NCBI GenBank assembly: GCA_021372395.1 | Contig: JAJFUP010000085.1 | Coordinates: 1 to 42,508 of the forward strand | Origin: Deltaproteobacteria bacterium | GTDB taxonomy: Bacteria > Desulfobacterota > Desulfomonilia > UBA1062 | Reading direction: 5' to 3' | DNA: 42,508 nt | Shown: in pieces, positions 4,325-27,067 of the stretch | Layout of the letters: every line of letters starts with the position of its first letter | Numbering within the stretch: the first letter of the stretch is position 1 | Notes under the pieces: model-generated | Seen by the model: the letters and a program-made list of their open reading frames with translations, nothing else | Databases searched by the model: none | Told to the model about the DNA's origin: nothing | Translations under genes and position numbers: made by a program

Positions 4325-5020
4325 ATGAACAGGAGAGACATCTTTTCCCGAAGCATTGCCTTCTGGGGCGAGGAGAAGCAGGACCTCCTTGCGAAAAAGA
4401 CCATCTTCATCGCCGGGGTTGGCGCAGTGGGGTGCGTTGTTGCGGAGATCCTTCTCCGTGCCGGGATCGGAAGGCTCTACCTTGCGGACAGGGGTTTCAC
4501 AGATCCGCCTGACCTGAACAGGCAGGCCCTCTACACCGTGAACGACCTCGGAAAGCCAAAGGTCTCCACCGCGGGACAAAGGCTGAAGTCCATGACCGGC
4601 CAGACCGAGGTCATCCCCCTGGAGGTGAACATCGGCGAGGATGACATCTCGGGCGCCCTGAGCGGTTGCGAAGGGGTGGCCGACTGTTTGGATAATTTTC
4701 CCAGCCGTTTTGCGCTCGAAGAGTCGTTGACAAAGGACATGTTCATGGTCTCCGGTGCGATCCTTCGCGACTACGGTCAGGTCACCACCGTTGTCCCGGG
4801 CCGCACGGTTTCGCTCCGGGAGCTGTACGGCGGGTTCAAGCATGTACCGAAGACCGTCCCGGTCATCGCACCCATCGTCTTCTGCCTCGGGAGCCTCATG
4901 GCCCAGGAGATCCTGAACAACATCTGGGGTGAGCCGCAGCTGCAGAACACGATCCTGGTGGCCGGCCTGGCAGGGTTCTGCTTCGACCTCGTTCCCTTGA
5001 CCCCGACAGAAAATCCCTGA
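4325..5020 (+). CDS. ThiF/MoeB/HesA-family E1-like adenylyltransferase (compact, no CxxC zinc motifs)
   Basis: The nucleotide-binding loop is IFIAGVGAVGCVVAEILLRAGIG, followed by DLNRQ. The protein is 231 aa. Confidence 0.8.
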   Translation: MNRRDIFSRSIAFWGEEKQDLLAKKTIFIAGVGAVGCVVAEILLRAGIGRLYLADRGFTDPPDLNRQALYTVNDLGKPKVSTAGQRLKSMTGQTEVIPLEVNIGEDDISGALSGCEGVADCLDNFPSRFALEESLTKDMFMVSGAILRDYGQVTTVVPGRTVSLRELYGGFKHVPKTVPVIAPIVFCLGSLMAQEILNNIWGEPQLQNTILVAGLAGFCFDLVPLTPTENP

Positions 5021-6568: not shown

Positions 6569-6572
6569 CTCC

Positions 6573-7697
6573 TCACGATCCCGCTTGCCCTTTGAGCATC
6601 TCGGCAAAGGCCTCCATCCGGTTTCTCGGGGCGTCGAGGCCCTCGCCGGTCTGTCCGGTAAGCTCAAGGAAAAGGGTTTGTGTGCCCTGCGCCCTGAGCA
6701 TACCCCCGAGATGGGGGAACTCGAAATATTCGTACTCGCAGAACTTTTCACCAAAGAAGATGAGCCCTTCGGCGCTGCTGTCATGGACTGCCCGACGGAT
6801 GGTCTCGATCCTCCTGTCGCTCGATGCCAGCAGGGTTGAACAGGGGTAGTGGTTGAGGTAGAAATCACAGTAATACTCCCCCGGGTCCGCGGTGGGGGCA
6901 GGGTTGTATCCCAAGGACCGCTTCAACGATGCAATGTCGTTGGCAACCACCCTGAGCCCCGATGCCTCCATGGTCTCGATGAGCTGCCTCGGCGGCGGCA
7001 GGATGCCGCTGACCATCACGCCCGGGTGCCGGAGATCATGGGGCGGGAGATCGTCCTCTTCCGGGATCTCTGCATCGAGGAGCTCTATGTGGGCCTCCAC
7101 CGGGAGGAAATGCGCAAGCTGAAGGATCCTGACAAAGGTCGGAAACGGCACCGTGCCTCTGCATGCAGCGTCTTCTATCTCTGCACACAGCTCCCGTTGG
7201 ATACGGTAGAGATCGATGCTGGCCAGGAAGGTTTCCGGAGAGAACGGCCTTCCCGTGAATTCTTCGAGATCACAGACCATGCTCGTGATGCGGTCCTTGA
7301 GGTACGCCCGAACGCCGGTGCGTTCCTTTGCAACGGCGGGCACGTGAAGCCGGAACATGGGCAGCAGGCGTGCCCCTTCCTCTTTCAGCCCTTCTTCGAT
7401 GATCTCGGGCAGGTTCCGCAACGTGTCACATGCGTTGTACATGAAGAGCGCATCCAGCAGTGCATGTGCATCCCCCAGTACGAACTCCGTGAGGCATCGG
7501 GCCACGTGGCAGGTGTAGTTCTGCAGGTGACGATCGCTCTTCGTGAGGTCGGTCACCTCGGAGCTTAAACCCCAGAGGGTTACAGGTGTCAGCCCGAACG
7601 AGTGCAGGAGTTCCAGAGGGGGGTAGAGGGGAAAACACCCCACCAGGCGCCGTCCCTGGTTCTTCAGTTCACAGAGCGTTGCCAGGATCTCACCCAT
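6573..7697 (-). CDS. 2-hydroxyacyl-CoA dehydratase / benzoyl-CoA reductase family subunit (HgdB/BcrC-like)
   Basis: The N-terminus reads MGEILATLCELKNQGRRLVGCFPLYPPLELLHSFGLTPVTLWG. The start is set at the ATG at 7697, with GGAAGGGA upstream. Confidence 0.75.
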   Translation of the reverse strand: MGEILATLCELKNQGRRLVGCFPLYPPLELLHSFGLTPVTLWGLSSEVTDLTKSDRHLQNYTCHVARCLTEFVLGDAHALLDALFMYNACDTLRNLPEIIEEGLKEEGARLLPMFRLHVPAVAKERTGVRAYLKDRITSMVCDLEEFTGRPFSPETFLASIDLYRIQRELCAEIEDAACRGTVPFPTFVRILQLAHFLPVEAHIELLDAEIPEEDDLPPHDLRHPGVMVSGILPPPRQLIETMEASGLRVVANDIASLKRSLGYNPAPTADPGEYYCDFYLNHYPCSTLLASSDRRIETIRRAVHDSSAEGLIFFGEKFCEYEYFEFPHLGGMLRAQGTQTLFLELTGQTGEGLDAPRNRMEAFAEMLKGQAGS

Positions 7698-8066
7698 GGC
7701 TGGATCCCTTCCGGGTATTGATGTGTTCCTGCAAACAGACAGTATTATAATCTCTGTGTGCCGGCAATACAACGACAAGCCGATGTTCCATGGCATGGAG
7801 TCCCCGCCCGCGATTCTTGTCTCCCAACCTTGCATGATCTATGTCTTGGGATTACTTTTTCCTTGTGAACATCGCATGGGGAAGCCACACAGGATCGTCA
7901 GCCCGAGACAAGCATGGAGCCATGGATCTGCACCCGGGAACAGGGATGAAGGCGGCCGAAAAGAAAGAGTGGAAAAAGCCCTGAAAAAGCCCTATGAAAG
8001 GGTGACTCAGTGGAAAGAGAAAGGAAACACGACCGAGAGGAACGGAGAGTTTCCCTGGAGGATTTC

Positions 8067-9257
8067 ATGGCAGAGAAGAGAAGGATTTATCTCGATAACA
8101 ATGCGACCACGCCCCTCCACCCGGAGGTGAAAAAGACCATACTCTCGGCAATGGAGATCTACGGCAACCCCTCGAGCCTCCACTCCTTCGGGAGACAGGC
8201 GCGAAGCCACGTGGAGCAGGCGAGGGACCATGTGGCGCGCTTCATCGGTGCCTCCAGCGACGAGATCATGTTTGTCGCCAGCGGCTCCGAGGGCAACAAC
8301 ACGATCCTGTCCATCCTCAACTGCGAGTGCAGGGGCTGCGAGTTCAACTCGTGCCGGGATCGGGAGCTCGTCACCACCACCATCGAGCACCCCTGCATCA
8401 TGGAGGCGTCGAAGTGCCTCAAGGAGAGGGGCATGAAGGTGCACTACGCCGGCGTGGACGCGGACGGCAAGGTGGTCATGGACCGGTTCAAGGACCTGGT
8501 CACCGGGAATACCGGCCTGGTCTCCGTGATGATGGCGAACAACGAGATCGGGACCATTCAGGACATCAGGACCCTTTCCGGTATCGCCCATGCAAAAGGG
8601 GCCATGTTCCACACCGATGCGGTCCAGGCAGTGGGCAAGGTGCCGGTGGACGTGAATGACCTCGGCGTGGATTTCCTCACCCTCTCGGGCCACAAGATCT
8701 ACGGTCCCAAGGGGATCGGCGCGGTCTACATCAGGAAGGATTCCCCTTTCTGTCCTCTCATCAGGGGCGGCCACCAGGAACGGGGCAGGCGGGCAGGCAC
8801 CGAGAACACCATCGGCATCGTGGCGCTGGGCAAGGCTATCGAGATGCGGGCCCTCGAGATGGTTGAGGAGGAGAAACGCCTGCTGCAGATGAAGGAGGCC
8901 CTCAGGGAAGGCATCCGAACCAGCATTCCCGACATACACTTCGTGGGGCATCCCACGGACAGCCTGCCGGGAACGCTGAACGTCTCCTTCGATGGGGCCG
9001 AGGGCGAGGCCATCCTCCTCTACCTCGACCTCGAAGGTCTTGCCGTGTCCACGGGTTCGGCATGCGCCTCCGGCTCGCTGGACCCGTCGCACGTAATCCT
9101 GGCCACGGGTCTTCCCCAGGAGTGCGCCCACGGATCGATCCGCTTCAGCCTCGGCAGGGAGAACACCATGGAAGATATCGCCTACTTGCTGGATGTGCTG
9201 CCCAAGGTGATCAGGCGTATCAGAGGCATGTCGACCGCGTATGCAAGGAGGCAGTGA
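8067..9257 (+). CDS. nifS: Cysteine desulfurase, NifS type
   Basis: IYLDNNATTPLHPEV, LSGHKIYGPKGIG (PLP lysine region) and VSTGSACASGS (active-site Cys loop) are present. The start at the ATG at 8067 follows GGAGG. Confidence 0.9.
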   Translation: MAEKRRIYLDNNATTPLHPEVKKTILSAMEIYGNPSSLHSFGRQARSHVEQARDHVARFIGASSDEIMFVASGSEGNNTILSILNCECRGCEFNSCRDRELVTTTIEHPCIMEASKCLKERGMKVHYAGVDADGKVVMDRFKDLVTGNTGLVSVMMANNEIGTIQDIRTLSGIAHAKGAMFHTDAVQAVGKVPVDVNDLGVDFLTLSGHKIYGPKGIGAVYIRKDSPFCPLIRGGHQERGRRAGTENTIGIVALGKAIEMRALEMVEEEKRLLQMKEALREGIRTSIPDIHFVGHPTDSLPGTLNVSFDGAEGEAILLYLDLEGLAVSTGSACASGSLDPSHVILATGLPQECAHGSIRFSLGRENTMEDIAYLLDVLPKVIRRIRGMSTAYARRQ

Positions 9258-9898
9258 TGGAACTGACGAACTGGGCTTATACCGACAAGGTACTCGATCA
9301 CTTCATGCACCCGAAGAACATCCTCGAGGACGAGAAGGCTTACAAGGAAGACGGCAGGGGGATCACCGGAAACATCAAATGCGGCGACCAGATGCTCGTG
9401 GTCATCCAGGTAGACAAGGCCAAGGACGTCATCACCGACTGCAAGTGGAAGACCTTCGGGTGCGCAAGCGCCATCGCCAGCACCTCGGTGCTCTCGGAGA
9501 TGGTCAGGGGCATGAAGATCGAAGACGCCTACAAGCTCTCGCCCAAGGACATCACCAAGGAGCTGGGCGGCCTGCCCGAGCACAAGATCCACTGCTCGGT
9601 GCTGGGCGACAAGGCGCTTCGGGCCGCCATCAACGACTACTATCTCCGCAATGGCATGGAAGATAAAGTGCGCACCGAGGAGGCGCGCATCGTGTGCAGC
9701 TGCATGAACATCACCGACCACGAGATCGAGGAGGCCGTGCTCGAAGGCGCCAGGACCTTCTACGAGCTCCAGGAGAAGACCAAGGTGGGCACGGTGTGCG
9801 GCGAGTGCAAGGACGATGTGCTGAGGCTGCTGGAGTTCTACAAGAACAAGCACTTCTGCAACATCGAAGAGGCCATGCCGGCGAAGACGCCGGCCTAG
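9257..9898 (+). CDS. nifU: NifU-like Fe-S scaffold (IscU-like domain + BFD-like 2Fe-2S domain, no C-terminal Nfu domain)
   Basis: [16 protein letters not shown] and HCSVL form the scaffold cysteines. [12 protein letters not shown]...CGECKDD is the BFD-like motif. The ATG at 9257 overlaps the nifS TGA. Confidence 0.88.
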
Positions 9899-9944
9899 GA
9901 CCCCACCGCGTGATGGAACGAAAGAGGAGAGGAGGTTCACTGCG

Positions 9945-10874
<930 letters not shown>

Positions 10875-10956
10875 GAGAAGACACAAGAGTCCCTGGGCGG
10901 AGCTGTCCGGGAGCAGGACTCCCAATGGGAGGCATCGATATGGGCGGAGGTCCACG

Positions 10957-11901
10957 ATGATCAAGGAGATACCAGGCATTGTCCCCAACGGGAATATCAT
11001 CCGCACGGTGGTGGAGGAGCTCTGCAGGCCCGAGTCGTACGACGCGGTGTATCACCGGCCGACCCTGGAGGCCTTCATGCCGTCTCTCGATGCCCTCACG
11101 GAGGTCGTGGAGAGGCTGAGGATGCTCCTCTTCCCCGCCTATTTCAGCGACTCGGAGATGACGCTCGAGTCCATGCCCTACATCGTCGGAAACCACCTGG
11201 AGAAGGTTGAGCGCCTCCTCTCGGAGCAGATCAAAAGGGGTTACGGCTTTTCCTGCGAGATGACCGACCCCCTGGTCTGCATCGACTGCGCCGAGCGCTC
11301 GCTCGGGCTTTCGCGAAAGTTCATCTCCACGATCCCCGAGGTCAGGAGGATGCTCGTCACCGACGTGGAGGCAGCCTACGAGGGCGACCCTGCTGCCAAG
11401 AGCATCGGTGAGACGATCTTCTGCTACCCGAGCATCAAGGCCATGACCAACTACCGCATTGCACACGAGCTGTACCTGCTCGGCGTGGAGATCATCCCGC
11501 GGATCATCACCGAGATGGCCCATTCGGTCACCGGCATCGACATCCACCCCGGCGCCACCATCGGCGAGCGGTTCTTCATCGACCACGGCACCGGTACCGT
11601 GATCGGCGAGACCTGTAACATCGGCAGGAACGTGCGCCTCTACCAGGGGGTGACGCTGGGGGCCAAGAGCTTCCCCAAGGACGATGTCGGCCGGCTTGTC
11701 AAGGGCACACCGCGCCATCCCATCGTGGAGGACGACGTGACCGTCTACGCCGGCACCACCATCCTCGGCAGGATACGCATCGGAAAGGGCTCCGTCATCG
11801 GAGGCAACGTGTGGCTCGACCACGACGTGGCACCTGGTGCCATGGTGATCCAGGGACATAATGCCGAGCCGGTCATCCTGAGCATGTGTGACGGGATCTG
11901 A
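10957..11901 (+). CDS. cysE: Serine O-acetyltransferase (long form)
   Basis: The hexapeptide-repeat region reads IDIHPGATIGERFFIDHGTGTVIGETCNIGRNVRLYQGVTLG. Confidence 0.88.
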   Translation: MIKEIPGIVPNGNIIRTVVEELCRPESYDAVYHRPTLEAFMPSLDALTEVVERLRMLLFPAYFSDSEMTLESMPYIVGNHLEKVERLLSEQIKRGYGFSCEMTDPLVCIDCAERSLGLSRKFISTIPEVRRMLVTDVEAAYEGDPAAKSIGETIFCYPSIKAMTNYRIAHELYLLGVEIIPRIITEMAHSVTGIDIHPGATIGERFFIDHGTGTVIGETCNIGRNVRLYQGVTLGAKSFPKDDVGRLVKGTPRHPIVEDDVTVYAGTTILGRIRIGKGSVIGGNVWLDHDVAPGAMVIQGHNAEPVILSMCDGI

Positions 11902-13379: not shown

Positions 13380-14255
13380 ATGTTCAGAACCTTAAAGCCT
13401 TTTGAATACCTCGAGCCCAAAAGTCTCGAGGAGGCAACAGGTGCTCTGTCCAAATGCGGGACAGAGGCAAAAGTGTATGCTGCCGGCGTAGATCTGGTGC
13501 CTCGGATGCGCAAACGCATCATCGCTCCGAAATGCATCGTCAATCTCCAGCGCATCGATGAAATGGATGATGTGATTGCAAGCAATAAAGACGGTGCGAG
13601 GATCGGTGCCCTGGCGAGTCTCCGTTCCATCGAGCTTTCGGCGCTGATCAAGGAAAGGTACTTCGTGCTCCATGAGGCCATCGCCAGCATCGCATCGATC
13701 CAGGTAAAGACACAGGGTACTGCCGTGGGCAACCTGTGCGTGGCAACCCCTGCCTCTGATGTGGCTCCTGCCCTTTTCGTTCTGGATGCCAAGATCAAGG
13801 CGGTCGGACCCTCCGGCGAAAGATTGATCCCCATTGATGAATTCTACCTTGGAGTGGGAAAGACCGTCCTGGGACCGAACGAAATAATCACGGAAATCCT
13901 GCTTCCCAAAGCCCCGGCCAATACCGGAGGGGGATTTGCAAAGCTGGTGAGAACTGTATCCGACATCGCCAAGGTGAACGCGGCGGCAGAGCTGACCATG
14001 GAAAAAGGTGTCTGCAAGGAAGTCAGGATAGCCGTCGGCTCGGTGGCCCCCACCGTGTTGAGAATGAAGAAGGCCGAGGATGTGTTGAGGGGGAATAAGA
14101 TCGATCAGAACCTGATCGAAAAGGCTGCCAGCGCTGCTGCGGATGCGGTGAAGCCGATAACAGACATCCGTTCTACGGCGGAATACAGGAAAGATACGAC
14201 CAAGGTGCTGGTGAAGCGCGTCTTAGAGAAAGCGCTGGAAAGAACGAAGGCATAG
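13380..14255 (+). CDS. Molybdenum hydroxylase FAD-binding medium subunit (CoxM/XdhB-like)
   Basis: MFRTLKPFEYLEPKSLEEA, AGGVDLVP and TAVGNLC are typical of the FAD_binding_5 / CO_deh_flav_C family. GGAGGA lies upstream of the ATG at 13380. Confidence 0.85.
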   Translation: MFRTLKPFEYLEPKSLEEATGALSKCGTEAKVYAAGVDLVPRMRKRIIAPKCIVNLQRIDEMDDVIASNKDGARIGALASLRSIELSALIKERYFVLHEAIASIASIQVKTQGTAVGNLCVATPASDVAPALFVLDAKIKAVGPSGERLIPIDEFYLGVGKTVLGPNEIITEILLPKAPANTGGGFAKLVRTVSDIAKVNAAAELTMEKGVCKEVRIAVGSVAPTVLRMKKAEDVLRGNKIDQNLIEKAASAAADAVKPITDIRSTAEYRKDTTKVLVKRVLEKALERTKA

Positions 14256-17151: not shown

Positions 17152-17206
17152 CATGCGAAGGGCTGGAACGGAATTCATGTGATCATTGAATCCAGCCCTT
17201 CGCATG
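17152..17206. repeat. Perfect 16-bp inverted repeat with 23-nt spacer (strong hairpin or palindromic site)
   Basis: CATGCGAAGGGCTGGA (17152-17167) is the exact reverse complement of TCCAGCCCTTCGCATG (17191-17206). The loop has additional TTCA/TGAA pairing. Confidence 0.6.
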
Positions 17207-17357: not shown

Positions 17358-17380
17358 GAGTATTCCGGATTGGAATACTC
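17358..17380. promoter_or_regulatory. Perfect 9-5-9 inverted repeat, candidate PadR operator
   Basis: The sequence is GAGTATTCC-ggatt-GGAATACTC. It lies 30 nt upstream of the preferred padR start. Confidence 0.4.
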
Positions 17381-17409
17381 CGATGTGGAAGGCCAACTGG
17401 AGCAGGGAG

Positions 17410-17949
17410 ATGAGAAATCAGGAGACAACGGAATACGTGGTGCTGGGAGTCCTGATGACAGGCGCGATGCATGGGTACGAGATCAACAGATTCATGTCCG
17501 AAACCCTGGAAGGCATCTGGCATATCAGCACCAGTCAGCTGTACGCCCTGATTCATAAACTCGAGGAAAAGGCAATGGTGAAGGGTCGCATCTCCTCCCG
17601 GGAGAATCTGCTCCCCAAAAAAGTTCTTACCCTCACGCCGGAAGGGAAAAGAAAATTCCTTGACTGGGTGATGAGCCCCACCTTGCATGTTCGGGATCTG
17701 CGAATGGAGTTCCTGACAAAACTTTTTTTCATCCGGGACCTGAAGCTCCAGGGAGGGGATCGGCTCGTCGATGCACAGATGGATCTGCTCAAGGATTTAC
17801 GAGAAAAGGTGGAGAATGCATGGAGCCTGGAGAAGGATGTGTACAGAAAGGTCGTCCTGGGGTTCAAACGGTCCCAGATAGAAGTCTGTGTGAGCTGGCT
17901 GAATTCGGATGTAGTCCATTTCATCGAAATCCTGGGAGAGCAGGGATGA
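17410..17949 (+). CDS. PadR-family transcriptional regulator
   Basis: The winged HTH reads YVVLGVLMTGAMHGYEINRFMSE...STSQLYALIHKLEEKAMV. The ATG at 17410 is preceded by GGAG. The ORF-track start at 17383 is also possible. Confidence 0.8.
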   Translation: MRNQETTEYVVLGVLMTGAMHGYEINRFMSETLEGIWHISTSQLYALIHKLEEKAMVKGRISSRENLLPKKVLTLTPEGKRKFLDWVMSPTLHVRDLRMEFLTKLFFIRDLKLQGGDRLVDAQMDLLKDLREKVENAWSLEKDVYRKVVLGFKRSQIEVCVSWLNSDVVHFIEILGEQG

Positions 17950-18004
17950 TAATGAGCGAGGTTGGATCCTTTTCCAGGTTTTGCACGGAGGTATGAGGAA
18001 GGGC

Positions 18005-18643
18005 ATGTCGGAGAACAATCCTATGAAGGCCCGGATAAGCGGCATAGTCCTTGCCGCAGGCCATGCCAGCCGCATAGGCATGACTAAGCAATTGCTCGAG
18101 TTTCGTCAGACCACACTCCTGGGCCAGGTGGTCACGAACGCCAGGAGATCCCTGCTGGATGAGATTATCGTGGTGCTGGGCCATGATGCTGCTGTCATCC
18201 AGCGCCGGATTGATTTCGAGGGTGTCCGGGTGGTGGTGAACAGGGACTATCTACAGGGGCAGAGCACCTCTCTGAAGACAGGCCTGAGTCATGTATCCTC
18301 ACGATCCAATGCAGCGATGTTTCTGCTGGGTGACCAGCCTCTGGTAGATGAGAGCTTCATCGACACGCTGATCAGGGCCTTCGAAGAATCTTCACAGCCT
18401 CTGGTCATGCCGGTTTTCGGAGGCAGGCGGGGCAATCCGGTGATCATCGGACGGGATCTGTTCGGAGAGCTCGCAGCCGGTGTCCAGGGTGATGTCGGGG
18501 CCCGGGTTTTATTCAAGCGCCACGTGGACAGTACCCATGAGGTGGAGGTGGACAGCCGCTGTATCCATGTGGACGTGGATACCCTTGAAGACTATCGCAA
18601 CCTGCTGGCCATGGATCAGGGTCATGGGAAGCCATTAAGATAA
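18005..18643 (+). CDS. mocA: Molybdenum cofactor cytidylyltransferase-like NTP transferase (MocA-like)
   Basis: GIVLAAGHASRIG, LLGDQPLV, GGRRGNPV and GDVGARVL match the MocA / NTP_transf_3 pattern. The start is taken as the third in-frame ATG (18005), after GAGGAAGGG. Confidence 0.75.
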   Translation: MSENNPMKARISGIVLAAGHASRIGMTKQLLEFRQTTLLGQVVTNARRSLLDEIIVVLGHDAAVIQRRIDFEGVRVVVNRDYLQGQSTSLKTGLSHVSSRSNAAMFLLGDQPLVDESFIDTLIRAFEESSQPLVMPVFGGRRGNPVIIGRDLFGELAAGVQGDVGARVLFKRHVDSTHEVEVDSRCIHVDVDTLEDYRNLLAMDQGHGKPLR

Positions 18644-18669
18644 ATCCTGAGAAGAAAGGTACCTACAAG

Positions 18670-19443
18670 ATGATGACAGAAACTCGGCAGGATATCATAG
18701 AAGCATCAAAAGAGCGTTTTCGTGAGATTGTCAGGGATAACAGCTTACAGAGCAGTTCAGTTACGATCCAGACAAAGATTCTTACGCCCGAACAGGCGAT
18801 CGGCAACCCCAGCAGGCGAGACTACCCCATTATCGAGGGTAAGGAACGCGTGGTCGAGGCGCATTTTCTCGGTTCGCGGGGTCATGCCTTTACCGACATA
18901 CCCATGAACTTTGTGGGGTTTCTGGAGGACGTGCTGGATCTTCCGACCGATTCGAATCAGAACCGGGCGATCTACCTGGCAACCCTCAATGCGGTCCTCA
19001 GGCACCTCGATCTGATTCACGGCACGGTCCACTGCAAGAATGATGACCCGGAGAGGTGCGCTCTGCATATCGTCGGGCATATCCGGGACACGTGGGGGAA
19101 CGTGGTTATCGGGCTGATCGGGTTGAATCCGGCCTTAGCCGAGATACTGGTGAAGAACTTCGGAAGTGATAAGGTGCATATAACCGATCTTGACCGCAGG
19201 AATATTGGCACGAAGAAGTATGGCGTGACGGTCCGGGATGGACGCACCCGTACCGAAGAGCTCATCAGAGAATCCGATGTGGTGCTTGCAACCGGGACTA
19301 CTTTGGGGAACGGATCCTTCGATACGATCTGGGATCTTTTACAGCAGTACCAAAAGCCCCACCTGTTCTACGGCGTGACCATTGCCGGGATAAGCAGACT
19401 CATGGAGATTGAGCGGATCTGTCCGCACGGAACTGATGGCTGA
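18670..19443 (+). CDS. DUF364-like Rossmann-domain protein (putative heavy-metal chelation family), paralogue 1
   Basis: The C-terminal half reads VIGLIGLNPALAEILVKNF...VHITDLD...SDVVLATGTTLGNGSFDTI. This parallels the DUF364 core of ORF 25765-26511. The N-terminal half is divergent. Confidence 0.55.
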   Translation: MMTETRQDIIEASKERFREIVRDNSLQSSSVTIQTKILTPEQAIGNPSRRDYPIIEGKERVVEAHFLGSRGHAFTDIPMNFVGFLEDVLDLPTDSNQNRAIYLATLNAVLRHLDLIHGTVHCKNDDPERCALHIVGHIRDTWGNVVIGLIGLNPALAEILVKNFGSDKVHITDLDRRNIGTKKYGVTVRDGRTRTEELIRESDVVLATGTTLGNGSFDTIWDLLQQYQKPHLFYGVTIAGISRLMEIERICPHGTDG

Positions 19444-19486
19444 TTGTCTCTTCCGGCAGAGGTGTGCAGAGCGAAAGGATGACAAC

Positions 19487-20506
19487 ATGAAAGAGATCAA
19501 CGTGGAGGATGCAGTAGGAACCGTCCTGGCCCATGATATGACCCGAATTATCCCCGGGAAATTCAAAGGAGTGGGGTTCAAGAGAGGGCATGTCATCACG
19601 GAGGCGGACATTCCCGAGCTGCTGAAGATCGGGAAGAAACACCTGTACGTCATGGACATTGCTGAAGATCAACTTCATGAGGATGATGCAGCCTTGAGGA
19701 TTGCCCATGCCCTGTGCGGGGATAGCCTGAGGTGGACCGAGCCGCATGAAGGCAAGGTGACGATCATCAGTAAGATCAAAGGACTGATCAAGATTGATGT
19801 CGGGGCACTGTTGAAGATCAATTCCCTCGGAGAAATCATTGTGGCGACCCACAAGACGGGAATGCCGTGCAAGAAGGATCAGATCATCGCAGAAACAAGG
19901 ATCATTCCGTTGCTGATAGCCCGGAGCAGGATCGAGGAGTTGGAGCTAATTACCGGCGTAGACGGGCCCGTAATCCAGATCCTGCCGTATACAAAGAGGC
20001 TGGTGGGCCTCGTGGTGACCGGGTCCGAGGTGTACGAGGGACTGATCGAGGATGAGTCAGATCGGTTCATTGTTTCCAAGCTGCAGGGGTATGACTGTGA
20101 GCTCGTGCAGAAGATCGTGGTGACGGATGACCCCGGGATGATCGCCCGGGCCATAAGGCAACTGCGGGATTCTGGCTGTGAGGTGATCCTGACCACCGGT
20201 GGTCTTTCCGTGGACCCCGACGATGTGACACGCATGGGCGTTCGGGAGTCCGGTGCCGAGATCATTTCCTACGCCGGGCCTGTGCTTCCGGGGGCCATGT
20301 TCCTGAATGCCCGGCTGGGGGGTGTCCCCATTCTCGGCCTTCCGGCCTGTGTGTTCTACAATCCCCGCACCATATACGATCTCATGCTCCCACGGATACT
20401 GGCCGGGGAGCAGCCCAGCTCCGGCGATATCGCAGCCATGGGACACGGAGGCCTGTGTCTACACTGTGAGGCCTGTCACTTCCCTGCCTGTTCTTTCGGG
20501 AGATGA
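19487..20506 (+). CDS. MoeA-related molybdopterin-binding (MoCF_biosynth domain) protein with Cys-rich C-terminal tail
   Basis: VEDAVGTVLAHDMT is a MoeA-N-like opening. ILTTGGLSVDPDDVT is the MoCF signature. The tail reads CLHCEACHFPAC. The start is set at the ATG at 19487. Confidence 0.65.
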   Translation: MKEINVEDAVGTVLAHDMTRIIPGKFKGVGFKRGHVITEADIPELLKIGKKHLYVMDIAEDQLHEDDAALRIAHALCGDSLRWTEPHEGKVTIISKIKGLIKIDVGALLKINSLGEIIVATHKTGMPCKKDQIIAETRIIPLLIARSRIEELELITGVDGPVIQILPYTKRLVGLVVTGSEVYEGLIEDESDRFIVSKLQGYDCELVQKIVVTDDPGMIARAIRQLRDSGCEVILTTGGLSVDPDDVTRMGVRESGAEIISYAGPVLPGAMFLNARLGGVPILGLPACVFYNPRTIYDLMLPRILAGEQPSSGDIAAMGHGGLCLHCEACHFPACSFGR

Positions 20507-20521
20507 GAGAGGTGTTTTGAG

Positions 20522-21211
20522 GTGCAGGTTTCCTGTTTGACACCGCTGCTCATTACCCTGAAGGTCGCCGGGACGGCCACCGTGTTCTCTCTCTGCCTGG
20601 GGTGCGCGCTGGGGATCCTCTTTGCCCGAAGACAGTTTCCGGGCAAAGACATCCTCGATACGCTGATTACCCTTCCATTGGTGTTCCCTCCAACGGTCGT
20701 GGGATACTATCTCATGGTCTTGATCGGCAGGCACGGCTGGCTGGGGCAGTGGCTCTATGAAACCTTCGGTATCCGGCTGATCTTCACCTGCACGGGAGCG
20801 GTGATAGCGGCCGTGGCAGTATCCGTGCCGATAGTGTACAAATCGGCCAGGGCTTCCTTCGAAGCTGTGGAGAGGGATTTCGAGGACGCGGCCCGAACCC
20901 TGGGCAAGCCTGAAACCGGGGTGTTCCTGCGCATCACCTTGCCCCTTTCCTGGCGGGGCATCCTTGCCGGGACCATGATAGCCTTTGCGCGCTCCATGGG
21001 AGAGTTCGGTGCTACCCTCATGGTCGCAGGCAATTTACCGGGGCGCACCCAGACGCTGTCCATGGCCATTTACGATGCCGTGCAGGCAGGAGAATCCATG
21101 AGGGCGAATATCCTGGTGCTGGTCACAACGATAGCCTGCGGGTTCATTCTTTTCAGCTCGCAGACCTTACTGAAACGTGCTCACTGGAGCGCAGGAGGAG
21201 GAATAGAATGA
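20522..21211 (+). CDS. modB: Molybdate ABC transporter permease
   Basis: It has multiple TM segments and the EAA-like loop FEDAARTLGKPETGVFLRITLPL. The start is GTG. The stop overlaps the modA ATG. Confidence 0.85.
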   Translation: MQVSCLTPLLITLKVAGTATVFSLCLGCALGILFARRQFPGKDILDTLITLPLVFPPTVVGYYLMVLIGRHGWLGQWLYETFGIRLIFTCTGAVIAAVAVSVPIVYKSARASFEAVERDFEDAARTLGKPETGVFLRITLPLSWRGILAGTMIAFARSMGEFGATLMVAGNLPGRTQTLSMAIYDAVQAGESMRANILVLVTTIACGFILFSSQTLLKRAHWSAGGGIE

Positions 21212-21993
21212 AGAGAATCATGGGAATCAGAAGAATAGTTGTCGTGTTATGTGTTGTATGCATGGGTATACTCCCCGGTGCCAGGGCCTGGGGAGAGGAC
21301 CTCATCGTTTCCGCCGGTGCGGGTATGGCCAAAGCCATGACCGCCGTGGGCCAGGCTTACGAGAAGAACCACCCTGGTGTTAAGGTGATCTTTAATTTTG
21401 CCGCAAGCGGAACCCTGTTGCAGCAGATGGTTCAGGGGGCGCCGGTGGACGTATTCGCTTCCGCTGATCAGATTACCATGGACAAGGCCGCCGGACAGGG
21501 GCTGATTCTCAAGGGATCGCGTACAGACTTTGCGCGCAATGCGCTCGTGCTTGCAGTTCCTGCCGGCTCACCCCTCGGGCTGCGTGGCGTCCGTGATCTT
21601 ACCCGGAAAGAGGTGAAAACCATTGCCATTGGAAACCCCGAGGTGGTTCCGGCAGGACGCTATGCACGTCAGTCGTTTGTCGCTGAAGGTCTCTGGGACA
21701 AGCTTTTGGATAAGTTTGTGTACGCGAATACCGTGAGCCAGGTGCTGGATTATCTGAAACGAGGCGAGGTTGACGCAGGGCTTATCTATGGCACGGATGC
21801 CCTGCAGGGAGACGGGAAGATACGTGTGGTGGCCGAGGTCAAAGGGCATGAGCCCATTGTTTTTCCCATTGCCGTAATCTCCTCCTCCCGCAGACAGCAG
21901 GCCGGAGATTTCATCCGGTTCGTCTGCAGCTCGGAAATGCGTGCCGTGTTCGGCTCGTACGGGTTCCTTCCCGTGAAAGGAAATGATAAATGA
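21208..21993 (+). CDS. modA: Molybdate ABC transporter periplasmic binding protein
   Basis: It has a signal peptide. NFAASGTLLQQMVQGAPVDVFASAD and GNPEVVPAGRYA are typical ModA motifs. Confidence 0.85.
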   Translation: MKRIMGIRRIVVVLCVVCMGILPGARAWGEDLIVSAGAGMAKAMTAVGQAYEKNHPGVKVIFNFAASGTLLQQMVQGAPVDVFASADQITMDKAAGQGLILKGSRTDFARNALVLAVPAGSPLGLRGVRDLTRKEVKTIAIGNPEVVPAGRYARQSFVAEGLWDKLLDKFVYANTVSQVLDYLKRGEVDAGLIYGTDALQGDGKIRVVAEVKGHEPIVFPIAVISSSRRQQAGDFIRFVCSSEMRAVFGSYGFLPVKGNDK

Positions 21994-22796
21994 AGGTCGC
22001 ACAATTTTCGGAGAGGATCGAAATCCGCGTGAGCAAAAGGTTCGGCTCGAGGGCAATAGGGTTTTCCCTCGACGTCGTCTTTGCCTCTAAGGATAAATTC
22101 ATCGTCTTGTTCGGACCATCGGGATCGGGCAAAACTCTCACCGTGAAATCCGTTGCCGGCCTGGTAACACCTGACAGGGGGCGTATTGCGGTCGGGTCAA
22201 AGGTGCTGTTCGATTCCGATGAACATGTAAACCTGAGCCCCAGAGATCGCAAGATCGGTTATGTGTTCCAGGATTATGCCCTGTTCCCCCACCTGAGCCT
22301 TCGGGAGAATATCGAGTTCGGCATGAAGAAGAGCCGGTGCAGACGGTGCGAAGAACACCGGCAGCGGGTGCATGAGATCATGGAGATGCTGGAGATAGAT
22401 GCCCTTGCCGGGCATTACCCCCATGAGATCTCCGGGGGCCAGAAACAGCGGGTGGCAATCGCACGGGCGCTGGCGAGCAACCCGAACCTGCTGATTCTTG
22501 ATGAGCCCTTTTCTGCACTCGATGTCCTTCTCAAGGAGAGGATGCGGGCTGAATTGATACAGGCTCTCGGCAGATTCGACATACCCGTGATCATGATCAC
22601 CCATGATCCAAGGGATGTGGAGATGTTCGCCCAGACTCTCGTAATCTACAAGACCGGGCGAGTAGAGGAGATCTGTCGGGAGGATGGAGCCATCAGTGGG
22701 TATCTCCAGGGTCTCATGGCGGAAACCAGGCCCCATCGCCAGGAGCGGACAGAGCCCGCCGGCACTCGAAAAGTGTGCTGCGCCGTTGCTGGCTGA
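21990..22796 (+). CDS. modC: ABC transporter ATP-binding protein (ModC-like, no C-terminal Mop/TOBE domain evident)
   Basis: Walker A is GPSGSGKT, the signature is ISGGQKQRVAIARAL, and Walker B is LLILDEPFSALD. The ATG overlaps the modA stop (ATGA). Confidence 0.8.
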   Translation: MKVAQFSERIEIRVSKRFGSRAIGFSLDVVFASKDKFIVLFGPSGSGKTLTVKSVAGLVTPDRGRIAVGSKVLFDSDEHVNLSPRDRKIGYVFQDYALFPHLSLRENIEFGMKKSRCRRCEEHRQRVHEIMEMLEIDALAGHYPHEISGGQKQRVAIARALASNPNLLILDEPFSALDVLLKERMRAELIQALGRFDIPVIMITHDPRDVEMFAQTLVIYKTGRVEEICREDGAISGYLQGLMAETRPHRQERTEPAGTRKVCCAVAG

Positions 22797-22928
22797 CCCC
22801 CGGGTATCGCAGGCAAGGGGCCTGTGAGCGCAACGGATCGTCGGTGAGGCCCCGAGGCAGGGAAGCGAACGCAGCGGATTTTATGCATCAGACACCCCGA
22901 GCAAGGGGTGGAGACAGGAGAGATCGCC

Positions 22929-23936
22929 ATGAAATTTCAAGACAATATGTATGGCAAGGCCCTTGAATGGGTAAAAGAGGGACGGGAGGTGGCGCTCGCC
23001 ACCGTGATATCCACATGGGGGTCCTCACCGAGGCCAGTGGGGAGCCAGCTTGTCATCGACGGGCAGGGGAACTTCGAAGGATCCGTGTCCGGGGGCTGCA
23101 TCGAGGGCGCTGTTATCACCGAGGCCCGGGAGGTGATGAGGGATGGGAAGCCTCGGCGGCTCGTCTTCGGAGTCAGCCAGGATAAGGCCTGGGAGGTTGG
23201 GCTCACCTGCGGGGGAGAGATCGAGATCTTTGTGGAGAAGGCCCCATCGAGGCAGATGCTGGAGGACCTGGCATCCCTGGAGATGGCGAACCGGGGTGTT
23301 TGTCTTGCAACAGATCTTGAAACCGGAGAAAAGACGCTGATCCCGCTGGATGAAGGCACGGGCGTCCTTACGCTTCCTGAAGGGTTCAGAGAGGCTGCGG
23401 GGAAGAACAGGGAAACGGACAGGAATTTCAGCCTTGACAAGGAGGGACACAGGTATTTTTTCCACGGAGTGCACCCGGCACCTGAGCTGATCATCTTCGG
23501 AGCAGTGCACATAGCGCAACCGCTGGCACATATTGCCCGGTTTGCCGGCTATGATGTCGTGGTTGTCGACCCACGGGAAGCCTTTGCGAACAAAGGCCGG
23601 TTCCCGGACGTTCCCTTGATCGTCGAGTGGCCGGACGTGGCACTCAAGGGCCGGCTGCACACAAAGACGGCACTTGTCACGATGACGCACGATCCCAAGC
23701 TGGATGACCCGGCGCTGGTGGAGGGGCTGAAGTCCGATGCGTTCTACATCGGTGCCCTGGGGAGCAGGAAGACGCATGCGGCAAGACTGGAGCGCCTTTG
23801 CGCGGCTGGGTTTCCCCCGGAAAGCCTTGCGAGGATCCACGGTCCTGTGGGGCTGTCCATCGGGGCTCTCAGCCAGGAGGAGATTGCCATAGCCATCATG
23901 GCGCAGATCACGCAAAGAAGACGTCTTGGAGGCTGA
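22929..23936 (+). CDS. xdhC: XdhC/CoxI-family molybdenum hydroxylase accessory protein
   Basis: ALATVISTWGSSPRPVGSQLVIDGQG..GSVSGGCIE is the XdhC_CoxI N-domain. The Rossmann C-domain reads LIIFGAVHIAQPLAHIA...YIGALGSRKTH. Confidence 0.85.
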   Translation: MKFQDNMYGKALEWVKEGREVALATVISTWGSSPRPVGSQLVIDGQGNFEGSVSGGCIEGAVITEAREVMRDGKPRRLVFGVSQDKAWEVGLTCGGEIEIFVEKAPSRQMLEDLASLEMANRGVCLATDLETGEKTLIPLDEGTGVLTLPEGFREAAGKNRETDRNFSLDKEGHRYFFHGVHPAPELIIFGAVHIAQPLAHIARFAGYDVVVVDPREAFANKGRFPDVPLIVEWPDVALKGRLHTKTALVTMTHDPKLDDPALVEGLKSDAFYIGALGSRKTHAARLERLCAAGFPPESLARIHGPVGLSIGALSQEEIAIAIMAQITQRRRLGG

Positions 23937-24016
23937 CCCATGCGTGGTTCACTCTGGATTTCCCCGGGGGGAACGGGTAGGGGAGAGCATGGGCTCAGGC
24001 GTAAAAGGGAGATAAC

Positions 24017-25264
24017 ATGATGTTCGACGTAGAGCAGGTGGTGCAGAACTTCTCCATGTGCAGGCAGAAAGGAGCTTATGGCCCCCTTCACTACCTGGAC
24101 AGCGCCGCGATGGCCCAGGTGCCGGACAGTGTGATCGATGCCATGTCCGGTCATGACGGTGGATGGCGCGCCAATGTCAGGCGGGGCATCCACCGCCCGG
24201 CAGAAGACGCGACACAGGCCTATGAAGATGCCCGCTTGCAGGTGGCTCGGTACCTGGGGGCAAAGGATCCGGACGAGGTAATCTTTACGGCAGGTGCCAC
24301 GGCCGGCATCAACATCCTGGCCTGGAGCCTCGGTTCCAGCCTCCGGAAAGGCGATGAGATACTGCTTTCGGTTCTGGAGCACCACAGCAACATCGTGCCC
24401 TGGCAGATGCTCAGCGAGCGGACCGGGGTGCTGGTGAGGTATCTTCCGGTGGATGAGGAGGGAAGGCTGGACCTCACAGCATTGGATGCCTGCCTGAGTG
24501 AGCGCACGAAGCTCGTGGCCCTCACCCATGGGTCGAATGTGAGCGCCGCTATCACCGACGTGGCACTGATCGCGCAGCGTGCGCACGAGTGCGGCGCCAG
24601 AGTCATGCTCGACGGTGCCCAGATGGCACCGCATGGGCCCCTTGATCTTGCTGCGCTGGATGTGGATTTTTATGTCTTCTCCTCCCACAAGGTGTATGGG
24701 CCCACCGGGGCAGGAGTTCTGTGGGGCCGCAGGGGATGCCTTGAAGGGTTGCCCCCGGCCTTCGGCGGCGGCGAGATGATCATGGAGGTCAACCTGGAGA
24801 AGAGCTCATACATGGGGATACCGCACCGTTTCGAGGCCGGGACACCGCCGGTGACTCAGGCGATCGGGCTTGGGACTGCCCTGGATTGGGTCATGCGCCA
24901 GGACATCGATGGCATGCAGCGGCACCTGACAGGCCTCACCGACCGGATCATGGCCGGCCTCATTACCCTGGACAACGGGTCAAACCGCATCAGGATTCTC
25001 GGCCCGGCATTGGGCGAAGAGCGGCTGCCCCTGGTGTCGTTCACCATGGAGGGCGCCCACCCGCATGATATCTGCCAGGTCATGAGCGACCGGCATGGGG
25101 TGGCCCTGCGGGGCGGACATCACTGTGCCCAGCCGCTGCACACCTATTGGGGAATTCACGGCAGCACGCGGGCCTCTCTGGCAATGTACAACCGGCCGAG
25201 CGATGTGGATGCGTTCCTCAGCGGTGTCGAAGACTGCATGAACCTGCTCTGCCGGGCAGTCTGA
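24017..25264 (+). CDS. Class V aminotransferase, SufS/CsdA-like cysteine desulfurase
   Basis: The protein has LDSAAMAQVP, SSHKVYGPTGAGVLWG (PLP lysine), FEAGTPP and RGGHHCAQPL (active-site Cys). Confidence 0.85.
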   Translation: MMFDVEQVVQNFSMCRQKGAYGPLHYLDSAAMAQVPDSVIDAMSGHDGGWRANVRRGIHRPAEDATQAYEDARLQVARYLGAKDPDEVIFTAGATAGINILAWSLGSSLRKGDEILLSVLEHHSNIVPWQMLSERTGVLVRYLPVDEEGRLDLTALDACLSERTKLVALTHGSNVSAAITDVALIAQRAHECGARVMLDGAQMAPHGPLDLAALDVDFYVFSSHKVYGPTGAGVLWGRRGCLEGLPPAFGGGEMIMEVNLEKSSYMGIPHRFEAGTPPVTQAIGLGTALDWVMRQDIDGMQRHLTGLTDRIMAGLITLDNGSNRIRILGPALGEERLPLVSFTMEGAHPHDICQVMSDRHGVALRGGHHCAQPLHTYWGIHGSTRASLAMYNRPSDVDAFLSGVEDCMNLLCRAV

Positions 25265-25290
25265 CAGAATGGCTTGGAAGGATAGAGTGT

Positions 25291-25755
25291 ATGGACTATG
25301 CGTTGTACAATGATGCGATACAATCCTTGGCAAAAGACCATTCGTATGCAGGAACGATTGATTACCCGGATTGCGAGGCGACCCTCGACAACCCCCTGTG
25401 CGGTGATCGGGTAACTGTTCAGATCCGCCTCGATGGGAGCCGTATCGCAGATATTCGCTGCCAGGTGCGGGGATGCCTTTTGTGCAAGGCGTCATCTTCT
25501 CTCCTCGCCTCGTGTGTGCGAGGCCGGACCCTCGCCGGTCTCATCGAATTGCGGGACTGTCTTGCCAGGGCCCTGGCGGCACCCACTGAACAGGATGCGG
25601 AGTTCCTCCCTCTCCATGAGGTATTCAGGCCTGTCAGAAAACACAGAAGCCGGCATTCCTGCGTGCTGCTTCCCTATGATGGCGCTGTTCAGGCCCTGTC
25701 AGGCATGGGCCTTCAAACGGAAGATCCCGTGATCACCAAACACATTCAAGGATAA
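25291..25755 (+). CDS. SufU/IscU-like sulfur acceptor / Fe-S scaffold-like protein
   Basis: Three conserved cysteines lie in NPLCGD, RGCLLCKASSS and SRHSCVLLP. The gene is immediately downstream of the SufS-like gene. The start is set at the ATG at 25291. Confidence 0.75.
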   Translation: MDYALYNDAIQSLAKDHSYAGTIDYPDCEATLDNPLCGDRVTVQIRLDGSRIADIRCQVRGCLLCKASSSLLASCVRGRTLAGLIELRDCLARALAAPTEQDAEFLPLHEVFRPVRKHRSRHSCVLLPYDGAVQALSGMGLQTEDPVITKHIQG

Positions 25756-25764
25756 GGAGATTAT

Positions 25765-26511
25765 ATGCTGAAGAAATGTGCCGATACGCTTTTACCCGCT
25801 GCGCGAGATCTGAAGGTGCGCAGAGCCCTCGTCGGGCCCGGATTCATAGCCGTGCAGCTCGATGACGACTCTCTGGGGCTGTGCGTAAATATCATCCCCC
25901 CCGGGACGACCGGCTGTACGGTCTACCGGAAAGGGGGCTCTTTAGTCGGGTCGAGGGCGGAAGATCTCCTCGGGCTGTCCATTGAGTCGGATTTCATATC
26001 ACGGGCCCTGGCCCTGGCCACGGTGAATGCCCTGGCATCGAGGATATCCACTGCCGAGACAGGGGACGTCTTCAGTCATATCGAGATCCGGGAGGGAAGC
26101 CATGCGGTCATCGTGGGGCTCATCGAGCCGGTGGCCGACATGCTTGTCCGAAAAGGATGTAAGGTGAGCATCTTTGATGACGCCCCCAGGAGCCATCCGT
26201 CCATGGAGCCGTTGAACATGCTCCCGAAACGGTTGGAGAGCGCGGATCTCGTGGTTCTCACCGGGACCACGATTGTCAATGGCACGCTCACGGATATCCT
26301 CGCCCGGATCGGCCATGCCGGCGAGGTGATCGTAATGGGAACGAGCACCCCCATGATCCCTGAAGTCTTCTCGGGTACAGGTGTCACATACCTCGCAGGT
26401 GCCAGCATCAAGGATCCCGACAGGGCCTTCACCATCGTGATGGAAGGCAACGGCACCAGGGAACTGCATCGCAGCGGCGCATTGATGAAGGCGTTCATGG
26501 CTGTCCGCTAG
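25765..26511 (+). CDS. DUF4213/DUF364 protein (putative heavy-metal chelation family), paralogue 2
   Basis: The N-terminus reads ALVGPGFIAVQLDDDSLGLCVNI. The core reads AVIVGLIEPVADMLVRKGCKVSIFDD...ADLVVLTGTTIVNGTL...VIVMGTSTPMIPEVF...GVTYLAGASIKDPD. Confidence 0.7.
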   Translation: MLKKCADTLLPAARDLKVRRALVGPGFIAVQLDDDSLGLCVNIIPPGTTGCTVYRKGGSLVGSRAEDLLGLSIESDFISRALALATVNALASRISTAETGDVFSHIEIREGSHAVIVGLIEPVADMLVRKGCKVSIFDDAPRSHPSMEPLNMLPKRLESADLVVLTGTTIVNGTLTDILARIGHAGEVIVMGTSTPMIPEVFSGTGVTYLAGASIKDPDRAFTIVMEGNGTRELHRSGALMKAFMAVR

Positions 26512-26560: not shown

Positions 26561-27067
26561 ATGCCGGGGTACCCTCCCGCTGCACCCCCTGCGCGGGTAG
26601 AGCGGTCTCCCTTCTCGTCGCTCATGGCATTCGGCAGTCCCCTCGGTGCCTTGATAGCTTCCTGTGTAGCTGAACGGGTCGACCGTAAGTGGGGCATCGC
26701 CGCCTTAACGGGTCTTACCGCAGTCTGCGGGCTGTTGTACGGCCTGAGCTTCAATCCAACGGCGATAGTCATCTTCGGTTTCCTGGTAATGGTGATCTCG
26801 TCGTGTTACCTGCCCCTGCTGTACTCTTACACTCCGGAGCTTTATCCTACAGAAGCCAGAGCCTCGGGGATGGGGCTCACCTATGGTATGGGCCGCCTGT
26901 CGAATATGGTGGGGCCCCTGATCGTGAGCTTCCTGTATGTAGGGTACGGGTACATCAGCGCATTCGGCTACATTGCCGGTTGCTTTGCGATAGTATCCGT
27001 GTCTGTCGCACTCTTTGGACCTCGGACGTACAAGCGTACACTGGAGCAGATCAGTGAAGGTGCTTAA
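26561..27067 (+). pseudogene. C-terminal remnant of an MFS transporter (aromatic-acid/metabolite:H+ symporter-like)
   Basis: Only about 4-5 TM segments remain, with ELYPTEARASGMGLTYGMGRLSNMVGP, a C-terminal-half MFS motif. There is no room for the N-terminal half, because the preceding gene ends at 26511. Confidence 0.6.

Follow-up and report, generated by a model that had tools for sequence, protein, structure and literature searches.

A predicted late-stage molybdenum-cofactor maturation cluster beside a xanthine-oxidase-family hydroxylase in a Syntrophales-like bacterium

The stretch of DNA analysed here, hereafter called the window, is contig JAJFUP010000085.1 of the Deltaproteobacteria bacterium assembly GCA_021372395.1, taken over positions 1 to 42,508 of the forward strand (42,508 nt). 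According to the listing of open reading frames (ORFs) and profile searches, it carries ten + strand genes at 18005-26511, lying 3′ of a three-subunit hydroxylase and a PadR gene, and it is this cluster, with its apparent connection to the molybdenum cofactor (Moco), that we describe. Two of its products are referred to by names of our own: DUF364w, a divergent DUF364 protein, and MoeAL, a protein with the MoeA fold and a cysteine-rich tail. The host is akin to Syntrophales, phylum Desulfobacterota, and the closest relatives of the window are metagenome-assembled genomes (MAGs) labelled Syntrophaceae, Syntrophus or Deltaproteobacteria. The window sequence is also present on a metagenomic contig of 1.4 Mb and in the MAG GCA_039680385.1; relatives and other loci fetched for comparison carry labels of the form L###. 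The genes in question are as follows.

13380..14255, + strand: FAD-binding (medium) subunit of the hydroxylase, xanthine-oxidase (XO) family; FAD_binding_5 148.5 bits, CO_deh_flav_C 94.2 bits
14271..14735, + strand: 2x[2Fe-2S] small subunit of the hydroxylase; Fer2_2 108.7 bits, Fer2 41.9 bits
14738..17065, + strand: molybdopterin-binding large subunit of the hydroxylase; Ald_Xan_dh_C, MoCoBD_1, MoCoBD_2
17383..17949, + strand: PadR-family regulator, between hydroxylase and maturation genes; PadR 54.9 bits
18005..18643, + strand: MocA-like Mo-molybdopterin cytidylyltransferase, forming molybdopterin cytosine dinucleotide (MCD); NTP_transf_3 124.6 bits, TIGR03310
18670..19443, + strand: DUF364w; PF04016 27.8 bits against a cut-off of 23
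19487..20506, + strand: MoeAL; PF00994 (MoCF_biosynth) as sole Pfam match
20522..21211, + strand: ModB molybdate ABC permease; TIGR02141 237 bits against a cut-off of 182.6
21208..21993, + strand: ModA periplasmic molybdate-binding protein; TIGR01256 179.9 bits against a cut-off of 62.5
21990..22796, + strand: ModC-like ABC ATPase, short form; ABC_tran 108.8 bits, TIGR02142
22929..23936, + strand: XdhC-family Moco-binding and insertion chaperone; XdhC_CoxI PF02625 90.4 bits, XdhC_C PF13478 145.9 bits
24017..25264, + strand: type II (SufS/CsdB-type) cysteine desulfurase; Aminotran_5 409.7 bits, TIGR01979
25291..25755, + strand: SufU-like sulfur acceptor; NifU_N 47.5 bits, TIGR01994
25765..26511, + strand: canonical DUF4213+DUF364 protein; PF13938 55.1 bits, PF04016 131.4 bits

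A preliminary description, made from the letters and ORF translations alone, had already named all ten maturation genes, and profile searches confirmed the domains on which these names rest. Its picture of ten tightly spaced genes on one strand held as far as the spacing is concerned, with no gap above 132 nt and both ATGA overlaps, at 21208 (modB/modA) and 21990 (modA/modC), readable in the sequence, while four of its starts proved wrong. On the basis of the gene calls of the identical public contigs and of homolog alignment, the starts were moved from 17981 to 18005 (MocA), from 19409 to 19487 (MoeAL), from 22908 to 22929 (XdhC) and from 25147 to 25291 (SufU), after which the successive intergenic gaps are 26, 43, 15, -4, -4, 132, 80, 26 and 9 nt. 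For the FAD subunit, the longest ORF begins at 13326, and translation probably starts at the ATG at 13380. An Rfam scan of the whole window returned zero matches, so that no Moco riboswitch is present, and promoter and terminator scans of the window gave counts at shuffle level and are uninformative.

The large subunit of the hydroxylase scores under the cut-off of every NCBIfam equivalog, and its best solved relative is the alpha subunit of 4-hydroxybenzoyl-CoA reductase (1RM6, E 1.8e-102). It has the C-terminal AKGVGEPG motif, which we take to hold the catalytic Glu of the family, and lacks the CSFR loop of the copper site of carbon monoxide dehydrogenase. Orthologs of the FAD subunit with 76-78% identity are syntenic in L005, L086, L088 and L090, and the PadR gene is kept at the same position in L003, L004, L005, L008, L011 and L086-L090. 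Just 3′ of the stop codon of the molybdenum subunit, at 17152-17206, lies a hairpin with a perfect 16-bp stem and a loop of 23 nt, which is not followed by a T tract. A perfect palindrome that occurs only once, GTATTCC-N5-GGAATAC, stands directly 5′ of the padR ATG (17360-17378); because no copy was found in the orthologous and other fetched loci, it is not claimed as an operator.

The maturation genes other than MoeAL and the DUF364 pair match known families. MocA reaches 175.1 bits with TIGR03310 (cut-off 186.45), its top family by far, with MobA models at about 40 bits. ModA and ModB both clear their equivalog cut-offs, while ModC, at 268 aa, scores 211.3 against 285 with TIGR02142 over profile positions 4-215 of 353; it retains the ATPase core but not the C-terminal portion, and is thus not a full-length ModC. 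XdhC has both of its Pfam domains and matches NF045664 (XdhC_rel_AOR) with 209 bits, under the cut-off. The desulfurase scores 461.6 bits with TIGR01979 (cut-off 475.1), finds its best PDB matches among SufS/CsdB enzymes and has both the SSHK motif with the pyridoxal-phosphate lysine and the GHHCA motif with the catalytic cysteine. SufU gives 73.3 bits with TIGR01994 (cut-off 92.5); its translation contains the motifs NPLCGD, GCLLCKASS and RHSC, and its PDB matches include the zinc-dependent sulfurtransferase SufU (5XT5_D). XO-family enzyme subunits (FAD, 2Fe-2S, Mo) lie 1-5 kb 5′ on the same strand, in conserved synteny, and the SufS-type gene directly 3′ of xdhC is in a conserved adjacency. 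A second sulfur-related group, made up of NifS-like, NifU-like (NifU_N + BFD), CysK-like and hexapeptide (CysE-like) genes, is found at 8010-11901, directly 5′ of the hydroxylase region, and is a separate unit for Fe-S and cysteine supply. With the NifS-NifU-CysK block at 8010-10874 standing apart, SufS and SufU are an extra, dedicated pair.

MoeAL has neither the MoeA_N nor the MoeA_C Pfam signature and scores 26 bits with the MoeA model NF007960, whose cut-off is 440. Its AlphaFold2 model (predicted local distance difference test score, pLDDT, 84, with the tail below 50) was nevertheless placed by Foldseek among MoeA proteins over most of its length: the top 38 matches, all at probability 1.00 and with as many as 399 aligned columns, are MoeA, gephyrin-E and Cnx1E. 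The TM score of these matches is only about 0.33, for which a different domain arrangement may account. The cleft residues D228 and D259 of E. coli MoeA correspond to invariant Asp residues in MoeAL, while Ala stands at the position of K275 and an invariant Leu at that of K279; this position and the architecture together speak against MoeAL being an ordinary MoeA. The protein ends in ...GHGGLCLHCEACHFPACSFGR, and the four-cysteine tail GHGGxCxxCxxCxxPxC is invariant in an alignment of 23 diverse homologs. The family is large: an indexed search scored 8000 candidates, all but 10 of which pass E 1e-5, and a full scan of 1.84 billion representatives yielded at least 791 clusters (50% identity) at E<=1e-30. 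Many members stop at profile position 323 or have domain IV replaced by a Cys tail.

The genes around MoeAL were surveyed with one genome per GTDB species. As in each of our neighbourhood scans, the best 80 matches were taken, and for MoeAL these 80 loci are all from Desulfobacterota. A hydroxylase subunit, MocA, XdhC, YqeB or YqeC is found near MoeAL in 67 of them within the stored flank, and the same set of neighbours in 36 of the 41 loci whose flanks each reach 5 kb or more. The commonest neighbour, which has no Pfam match, is YqeB (TIGR03309, 358 bits), present in 50 of the 80 loci and directly downstream of MoeAL in 44; another is YqeC (TIGR03172, 178 bits). Both are known as markers of selenium-dependent molybdenum hydroxylases. 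Outside this sample, Agrobacterium plasmids encode a MoeAL::MocA fusion without a Cys tail after xdhC, adjoining an enzyme of the xanthine dehydrogenase (XDH) family, and Paenibacillus has the order moaC-mogA-MoeAL, with a MoeAL lacking the Cys tail in the usual moeA slot. Further fusion partners of the MoeA-like family are FmdE (with a zinc finger), MobB and MoaC (fusions including that with MocA: L173 6989-8623; P0258, P0250, P0309, P0360). Judging from these annotated neighbourhoods and fusions, MoeAL is a protein of the Moco pathway that often stands in the place of moeA. As to the tail, the few examples at hand show it in the Desulfobacterota and clostridial proteins and lack it in those of Agrobacterium and Paenibacillus.

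For the first of the two DUF364 proteins, DUF364w, a sequence search against the PDB found nothing, and only the fold search, with an AlphaFold2 model of pLDDT 89.3, gave the DUF364 structures 3NPG and 3L5O as best matches over about 250 columns. The protein has the full two-domain fold (enolase-N-like and Rossmann-like), and homolog alignment identifies H121, C122, C130 and C251 as invariant. Its subfamily counts 723 detected homologs in many phyla, which, together with the structure, rules out that the weak Pfam score was a chance match. DUF364w and the canonical DUF364 protein at the end of the cluster share 29% identity over 143 residues.

In MoeAL loci, where DUF364 genes were searched for with six-frame jackhmmer, DUF364w always adjoins MoeAL, upstream in the relatives of the window and downstream in Desulfobacula. 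In three loci outside Desulfobacterota, a TauE/SafE permease gene lies upstream of DUF364w and overlaps it in all three, and TauE takes this upstream position in 32 of 83 DUF364w loci (three look-ups and 80 metagenome loci). A gene related to molybdenum was seen in 22 of the 83 and in 13 of the 31 that extend over at least 9 kb. The operon moaA-moaC-MOSC-mogA-TauE-DUF364w occurs in L107, L114 and L133, and L095 has moaA-moaC-MOSC-mogA-XdhC-MocA-TauE-DUF364w facing an enzyme of the XDH family. TauE/SafE-DUF364 pairs end moaA-moaC-MOSC-mogA operons of metagenomic bacteria in L095, L107, L114, L116 and L133. DUF364w thus sits beside a transporter, ModABC or TauE, and often inside Moco operons. 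Since a TauE-family protein of rice has recently been shown to transport molybdenum, a molybdate importer of the TauE type is plausible, and the bacterial TauE-type permease may be such an importer, forming with DUF364 a candidate uptake module that is not of the ABC type.

The canonical DUF364 protein has a comparable context. A second DUF4213/DUF364 gene on the 1.4-Mb contig (L166 9001-10742) is 55% identical and shares 4 nt with the start of moaA, L167 repeats the order XdhC-SufS-SufU-DUF364 of the window at 63% identity, and L010 has a homolog downstream of an ABC transporter, beside MocA. In the literature, DUF364 has been linked to transporters of Mo, W, V and Fe, its association with molybdate transporters was published in 2010 and 2024, and a DUF364-linked modABC operon is cofit with nifH. 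The link of both DUF364 proteins to Moco is well supported by gene context; their most likely place, to speculate, would be between oxyanion uptake and cofactor assembly. The preliminary description had set MoeAL and the two DUF364 proteins apart as members without an established role in Moco biology, for which co-occurrence with Moco genes should be looked for, and MoeAL and both DUF364 types are indeed linked to such genes in many genomes.

An order resembling that of the window recurs on about a dozen contigs (L003, L005, L006, L011, L012, L086-L091 and L167). L005 and L086-L091 read hydroxylase-PadR-MocA-DUF364w-MoeAL-...-XdhC-SufS-SufU, with 56-78% identity, and L003, L011 and L012 read MocA-MoeAL-XdhC-(ABC)-SufS-SufU. 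In L005 and L086-L091, YqeC occupies the exact place that modBAC has in the window; L005 and L086 have more ABC-transporter genes between YqeC and XdhC, including in L005 an NMT1-type binding protein, and in L003 XdhC and SufS are separated by an ABC transporter of another kind. The place of modBAC is taken in L005, L009, L010 and L086 by a substrate-binding protein of the NMT1/THI5 type together with a permease and an ATPase. As the types and positions of the transporters differ among related clusters, transporters appear to have been inserted repeatedly into a conserved core, which may be written, speculatively, as MocA-(DUF364w)-MoeAL-(YqeC)-XdhC-SufS-SufU, modBAC and the terminal DUF364 gene then being lineage-specific additions. 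The conserved order and the varied transporter insertions rule out that unconnected mod and suf operons came to lie side by side by chance. In the sample of 80 genomes, whose loci are related to one another, YqeB is found in none of the five loci with XdhC and SufS and in 50 of the other 75 MoeAL loci, which is suggestive of, though no statistical proof for, XdhC-SufS-SufU and YqeB/YqeC being alternative modules for the delivery of sulfur and selenium. XdhC-SufS-SufU is tentatively read as the sulfur counterpart because MoeAL mostly precedes YqeB/YqeC in relatives.

Taken together, sequence and gene context make it likely that the cluster is an operon for the late stages of maturation of the neighbouring three-subunit XO-family hydroxylase, and every mechanistic step below is proposed on that footing. 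ModBAC would bring in molybdate, and MoeAL, in the stead of MoeA, would bind the molybdopterin intermediate and insert or present Mo. MocA would attach CMP to give the MCD cofactor, MCD being presumed because MocA is present. XdhC would then hold the cofactor while SufS, via SufU, exchanges a terminal oxo ligand on Mo for a sulfido ligand, and would finally put the sulfurated cofactor into the large subunit; PadR is probably the regulator of the unit. In Rhodobacter capsulatus, MoeA gives Moco to XdhC, NifS4 sulfurates the XdhC-bound Moco and XdhC inserts it into XdhB, and the present scheme would be the same MoeA-XdhC-NifS4-XdhB route with every partner encoded in cis. The pathway outlined in the preliminary description, from import through MCD formation to XdhC-dependent sulfuration and insertion into the neighbouring hydroxylase, is consistent with this published scheme and with the conserved synteny of the hydroxylase.

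Several points weigh against this reading. MocA, ModC, XdhC, SufS and SufU score somewhat under NCBIfam equivalog or subfamily cut-offs. The insertase activity of MoeAL is uncertain owing to the missing MoeA_N and MoeA_C signatures and the Leu at the K279 position. About 60% of the long DUF364w loci have no Mo gene nearby, and the sole demonstrated activity of a DUF364 protein is the cyclisation of methylated S-adenosylmethionine by Streptomyces Orf5, in secondary metabolism. The neighbourhood counts do not represent independent events, because the samples are phylogenetically clustered. Finally, the chalcogen could be selenium, since orthologous clusters carry YqeC and SufS-type enzymes are also selenocysteine lyases.

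Three other explanations were weighed. SufS and SufU, a known sulfur-supply pair for Fe-S clusters, might build such clusters instead of sulfurating Moco: the hydroxylase requires them, with its [2Fe-2S] pair in the small subunit, and the CxxCxxCxxPxC tail of MoeAL, which resembles a cluster-binding motif, could hold another. We hold this to be improbable. Profile searches found no match to the scaffold proteins SufB, SufC or SufD among the ten genes, and the window already has a NifS-NifU pair, 4 kb 5′ of the hydroxylase. In all conserved clusters, moreover, SufS comes next after XdhC, with at most a transporter between them, and a desulfurase acting on XdhC-bound Moco is an established bacterial mechanism.

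A second explanation keeps Moco as the target and changes the element: the cluster would install selenium and the hydroxylase would depend on it, with SufS in the role of a selenocysteine lyase and SufU in that of a selenium carrier. YqeC stands between MoeAL and XdhC in L005 and L086-L091, YqeB and YqeC are the most frequent partners of MoeAL, structures of E. coli SufS/CsdB have been deposited as 'selenocysteine lyase', and the selenium-dependent locus of Enterococcus faecalis includes a NifS-like putative selenocysteine lyase. The window itself has neither YqeB nor YqeC, a tblastn search with twelve sequences having returned one spurious match at E 0.007, and YqeB, the strictest selenium marker, never occurs with the XdhC-SufS block in the 80 loci. 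SufU, for its part, retains the Cys and Asp motifs of sulfur-accepting SufU proteins, and no SelD-like gene was seen among the scanned window ORFs, in a scan that was not exhaustive and did not extend to the rest of the genome. Selenium installation is accordingly given little credence. Least probable of all is a general operon that supplies Moco to all molybdoenzymes of the cell and merely adjoins the hydroxylase, for although ModBAC is a generic importer and MoeAL occurs in general Moco operons of Paenibacillus and C. botulinum and has FmdE, MobB or MoaC as a fusion partner in other lineages, MocA and XdhC are restricted to MCD-type and XO-family enzymes, early Moco genes lie elsewhere in the genome, and hydroxylase, PadR and maturation genes stay together on at least five independent contigs.

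Within the reading as a dedicated maturation operon, a bolder version can be put forward, which we consider doubtful in its entirety. MoeAL would be a platform shared among anaerobes and indifferent to the chalcogen, on which the XO-family cofactor receives its terminal ligand, and its flexible four-cysteine tail would relay to Mo the sulfur supplied by SufS/SufU with XdhC or the selenium supplied by YqeB/YqeC and SelD; DUF364 would be a missing step in the handling of molybdate between importer and insertase, and TauE-DUF364 an unrecognised non-ABC uptake module.

Other genes of the window lie on both sides of this region. A MoxR/CoxD-like AAA+ ATPase (498-1421), a VWA-domain CoxE-like protein (2064-2972) and a ThiF/MoeB-like protein (4325-5020) are encoded 8-13 kb 5′ of the hydroxylase. 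In a haloarchaeal cox cluster, the genes for MoxR, VWA, DUF364 and XdhC are contiguous, so these three genes of the window may likewise act for the hydroxylase. The - strand at 5285-7835 encodes two neighbouring members of the 2-hydroxyglutaryl-CoA dehydratase D-component family, which may be part of a CoA-ester dehydratase or reductase metabolism. After the maturation cluster, at 26561-27067, comes an ORF for a major facilitator superfamily (MFS) transporter of only 168 aa, probably a truncated remnant, which was seen just on the two contigs with the identical DUF364 protein.

Several known systems resemble the locus in part. Like xdhABC of R. capsulatus, it encodes XdhC together with the enzyme, and it would combine a desulfurase for XdhC-bound Moco with a MoeA-type donor to XdhC. 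In contrast to R. capsulatus, desulfuration falls to SufS and SufU, encoded in cis immediately 3′ of xdhC, a shortened MoeA paralog with a Cys tail, likewise in cis, stands in for MoeA, and the cofactor is presumably MCD. The selenium-dependent hydroxylase clusters with yqeB, yqeC and ygfJ/mocA (Haft and Self 2008) likewise have MocA, XdhC and MoeAL beside XO-family subunits, as in the annotated record of Peptoclostridium acidaminophilum, FAD-FeS-MoeAL-yqeC-mocA-yqeB-rSAM-xdhC. The window differs from them in having SufS-SufU and neither yqeB nor yqeC, although its orthologs retain yqeC. The C. botulinum plasmid pC2C203U28 carries MoeAL-modA-modB-modC-DUF364-mogA-moaA-moaC, and shares with the window a Cys-tailed MoeAL (43% identity), ModABC and DUF364w (41%). 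That cluster differs in its early Moco genes, in the absence of XdhC, MocA and SufS/SufU, and in having no hydroxylase immediately adjacent.

In the cox accessory clusters of aerobic CO dehydrogenase, such as CoxL-XdhC-MoxR-VWA-DUF364-XdhC/CoxI on a plasmid of Natronorubrum bangense, XdhC-family and DUF364 proteins also occur together in the maturation of an XO-family enzyme, whereas in the window MoxR and VWA are more than 10 kb away, beyond unrelated genes, and the hydroxylase has no CSFR. The moco and aqc clusters of Arthrobacter nicotinovorans pAO1 are comparable as cofactor and assembly genes dedicated to XO-family enzymes, namely nicotine and ketone dehydrogenases; they differ in carrying early Moco genes, and SufS/SufU, MoeAL and DUF364 are not reported there. 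Presumably pAO1 also carries modABC. Eukaryotic ABA3/MOCOS, in which a SufS-like domain is fused to MOSC, would offer a parallel at the level of mechanism, a SufS-like desulfurase passing persulfide sulfur to a Moco-binding partner for the sulfido ligand. Unlike ABA3/MOCOS, the partners in the window are separate proteins (SufS, SufU, XdhC and MoeAL) and MOSC is absent, though MOSC is found beside DUF364w elsewhere.

In the light of these precedents, some of the wider claims of the preliminary description had to be given up. It had called the array self-contained and complete, which overstates the case because early Moco genes are elsewhere: moaA, moaC, moaD/E and mogA are not in the cluster, and moaA lies elsewhere on the 1.4-Mb contig. 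Nor is this an undescribed type of operon, as it had supposed, given the pAO1 moco/aqc, selenium-dependent hydroxylase and cox clusters, and the combination MoeAL-modABC-DUF364-mogA-moaA-moaC was already annotated on C. botulinum plasmids. The locus is a variant within a known class of XO-family maturation clusters.

The value of this variant lies in the cis-encoded SufS/SufU pair after XdhC, in a Cys-tailed MoeA paralog that it has in common with the selenium-type clusters and in two Moco-linked DUF364 proteins. The way in which the labile sulfur or selenium ligand reaches the Moco of XO-family enzymes in bacteria is only partly understood, and for selenium just the markers yqeB and yqeC are known. 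DUF364 structures have been solved since 2010 without a physiological role, and gene context now ties MoeAL and two DUF364 clades to Moco operons. With a single MoeA-like protein that precedes XdhC-SufS-SufU in some loci and YqeB/YqeC in others, the locus and its relatives offer a natural contrast and concrete candidates for comparing the two.

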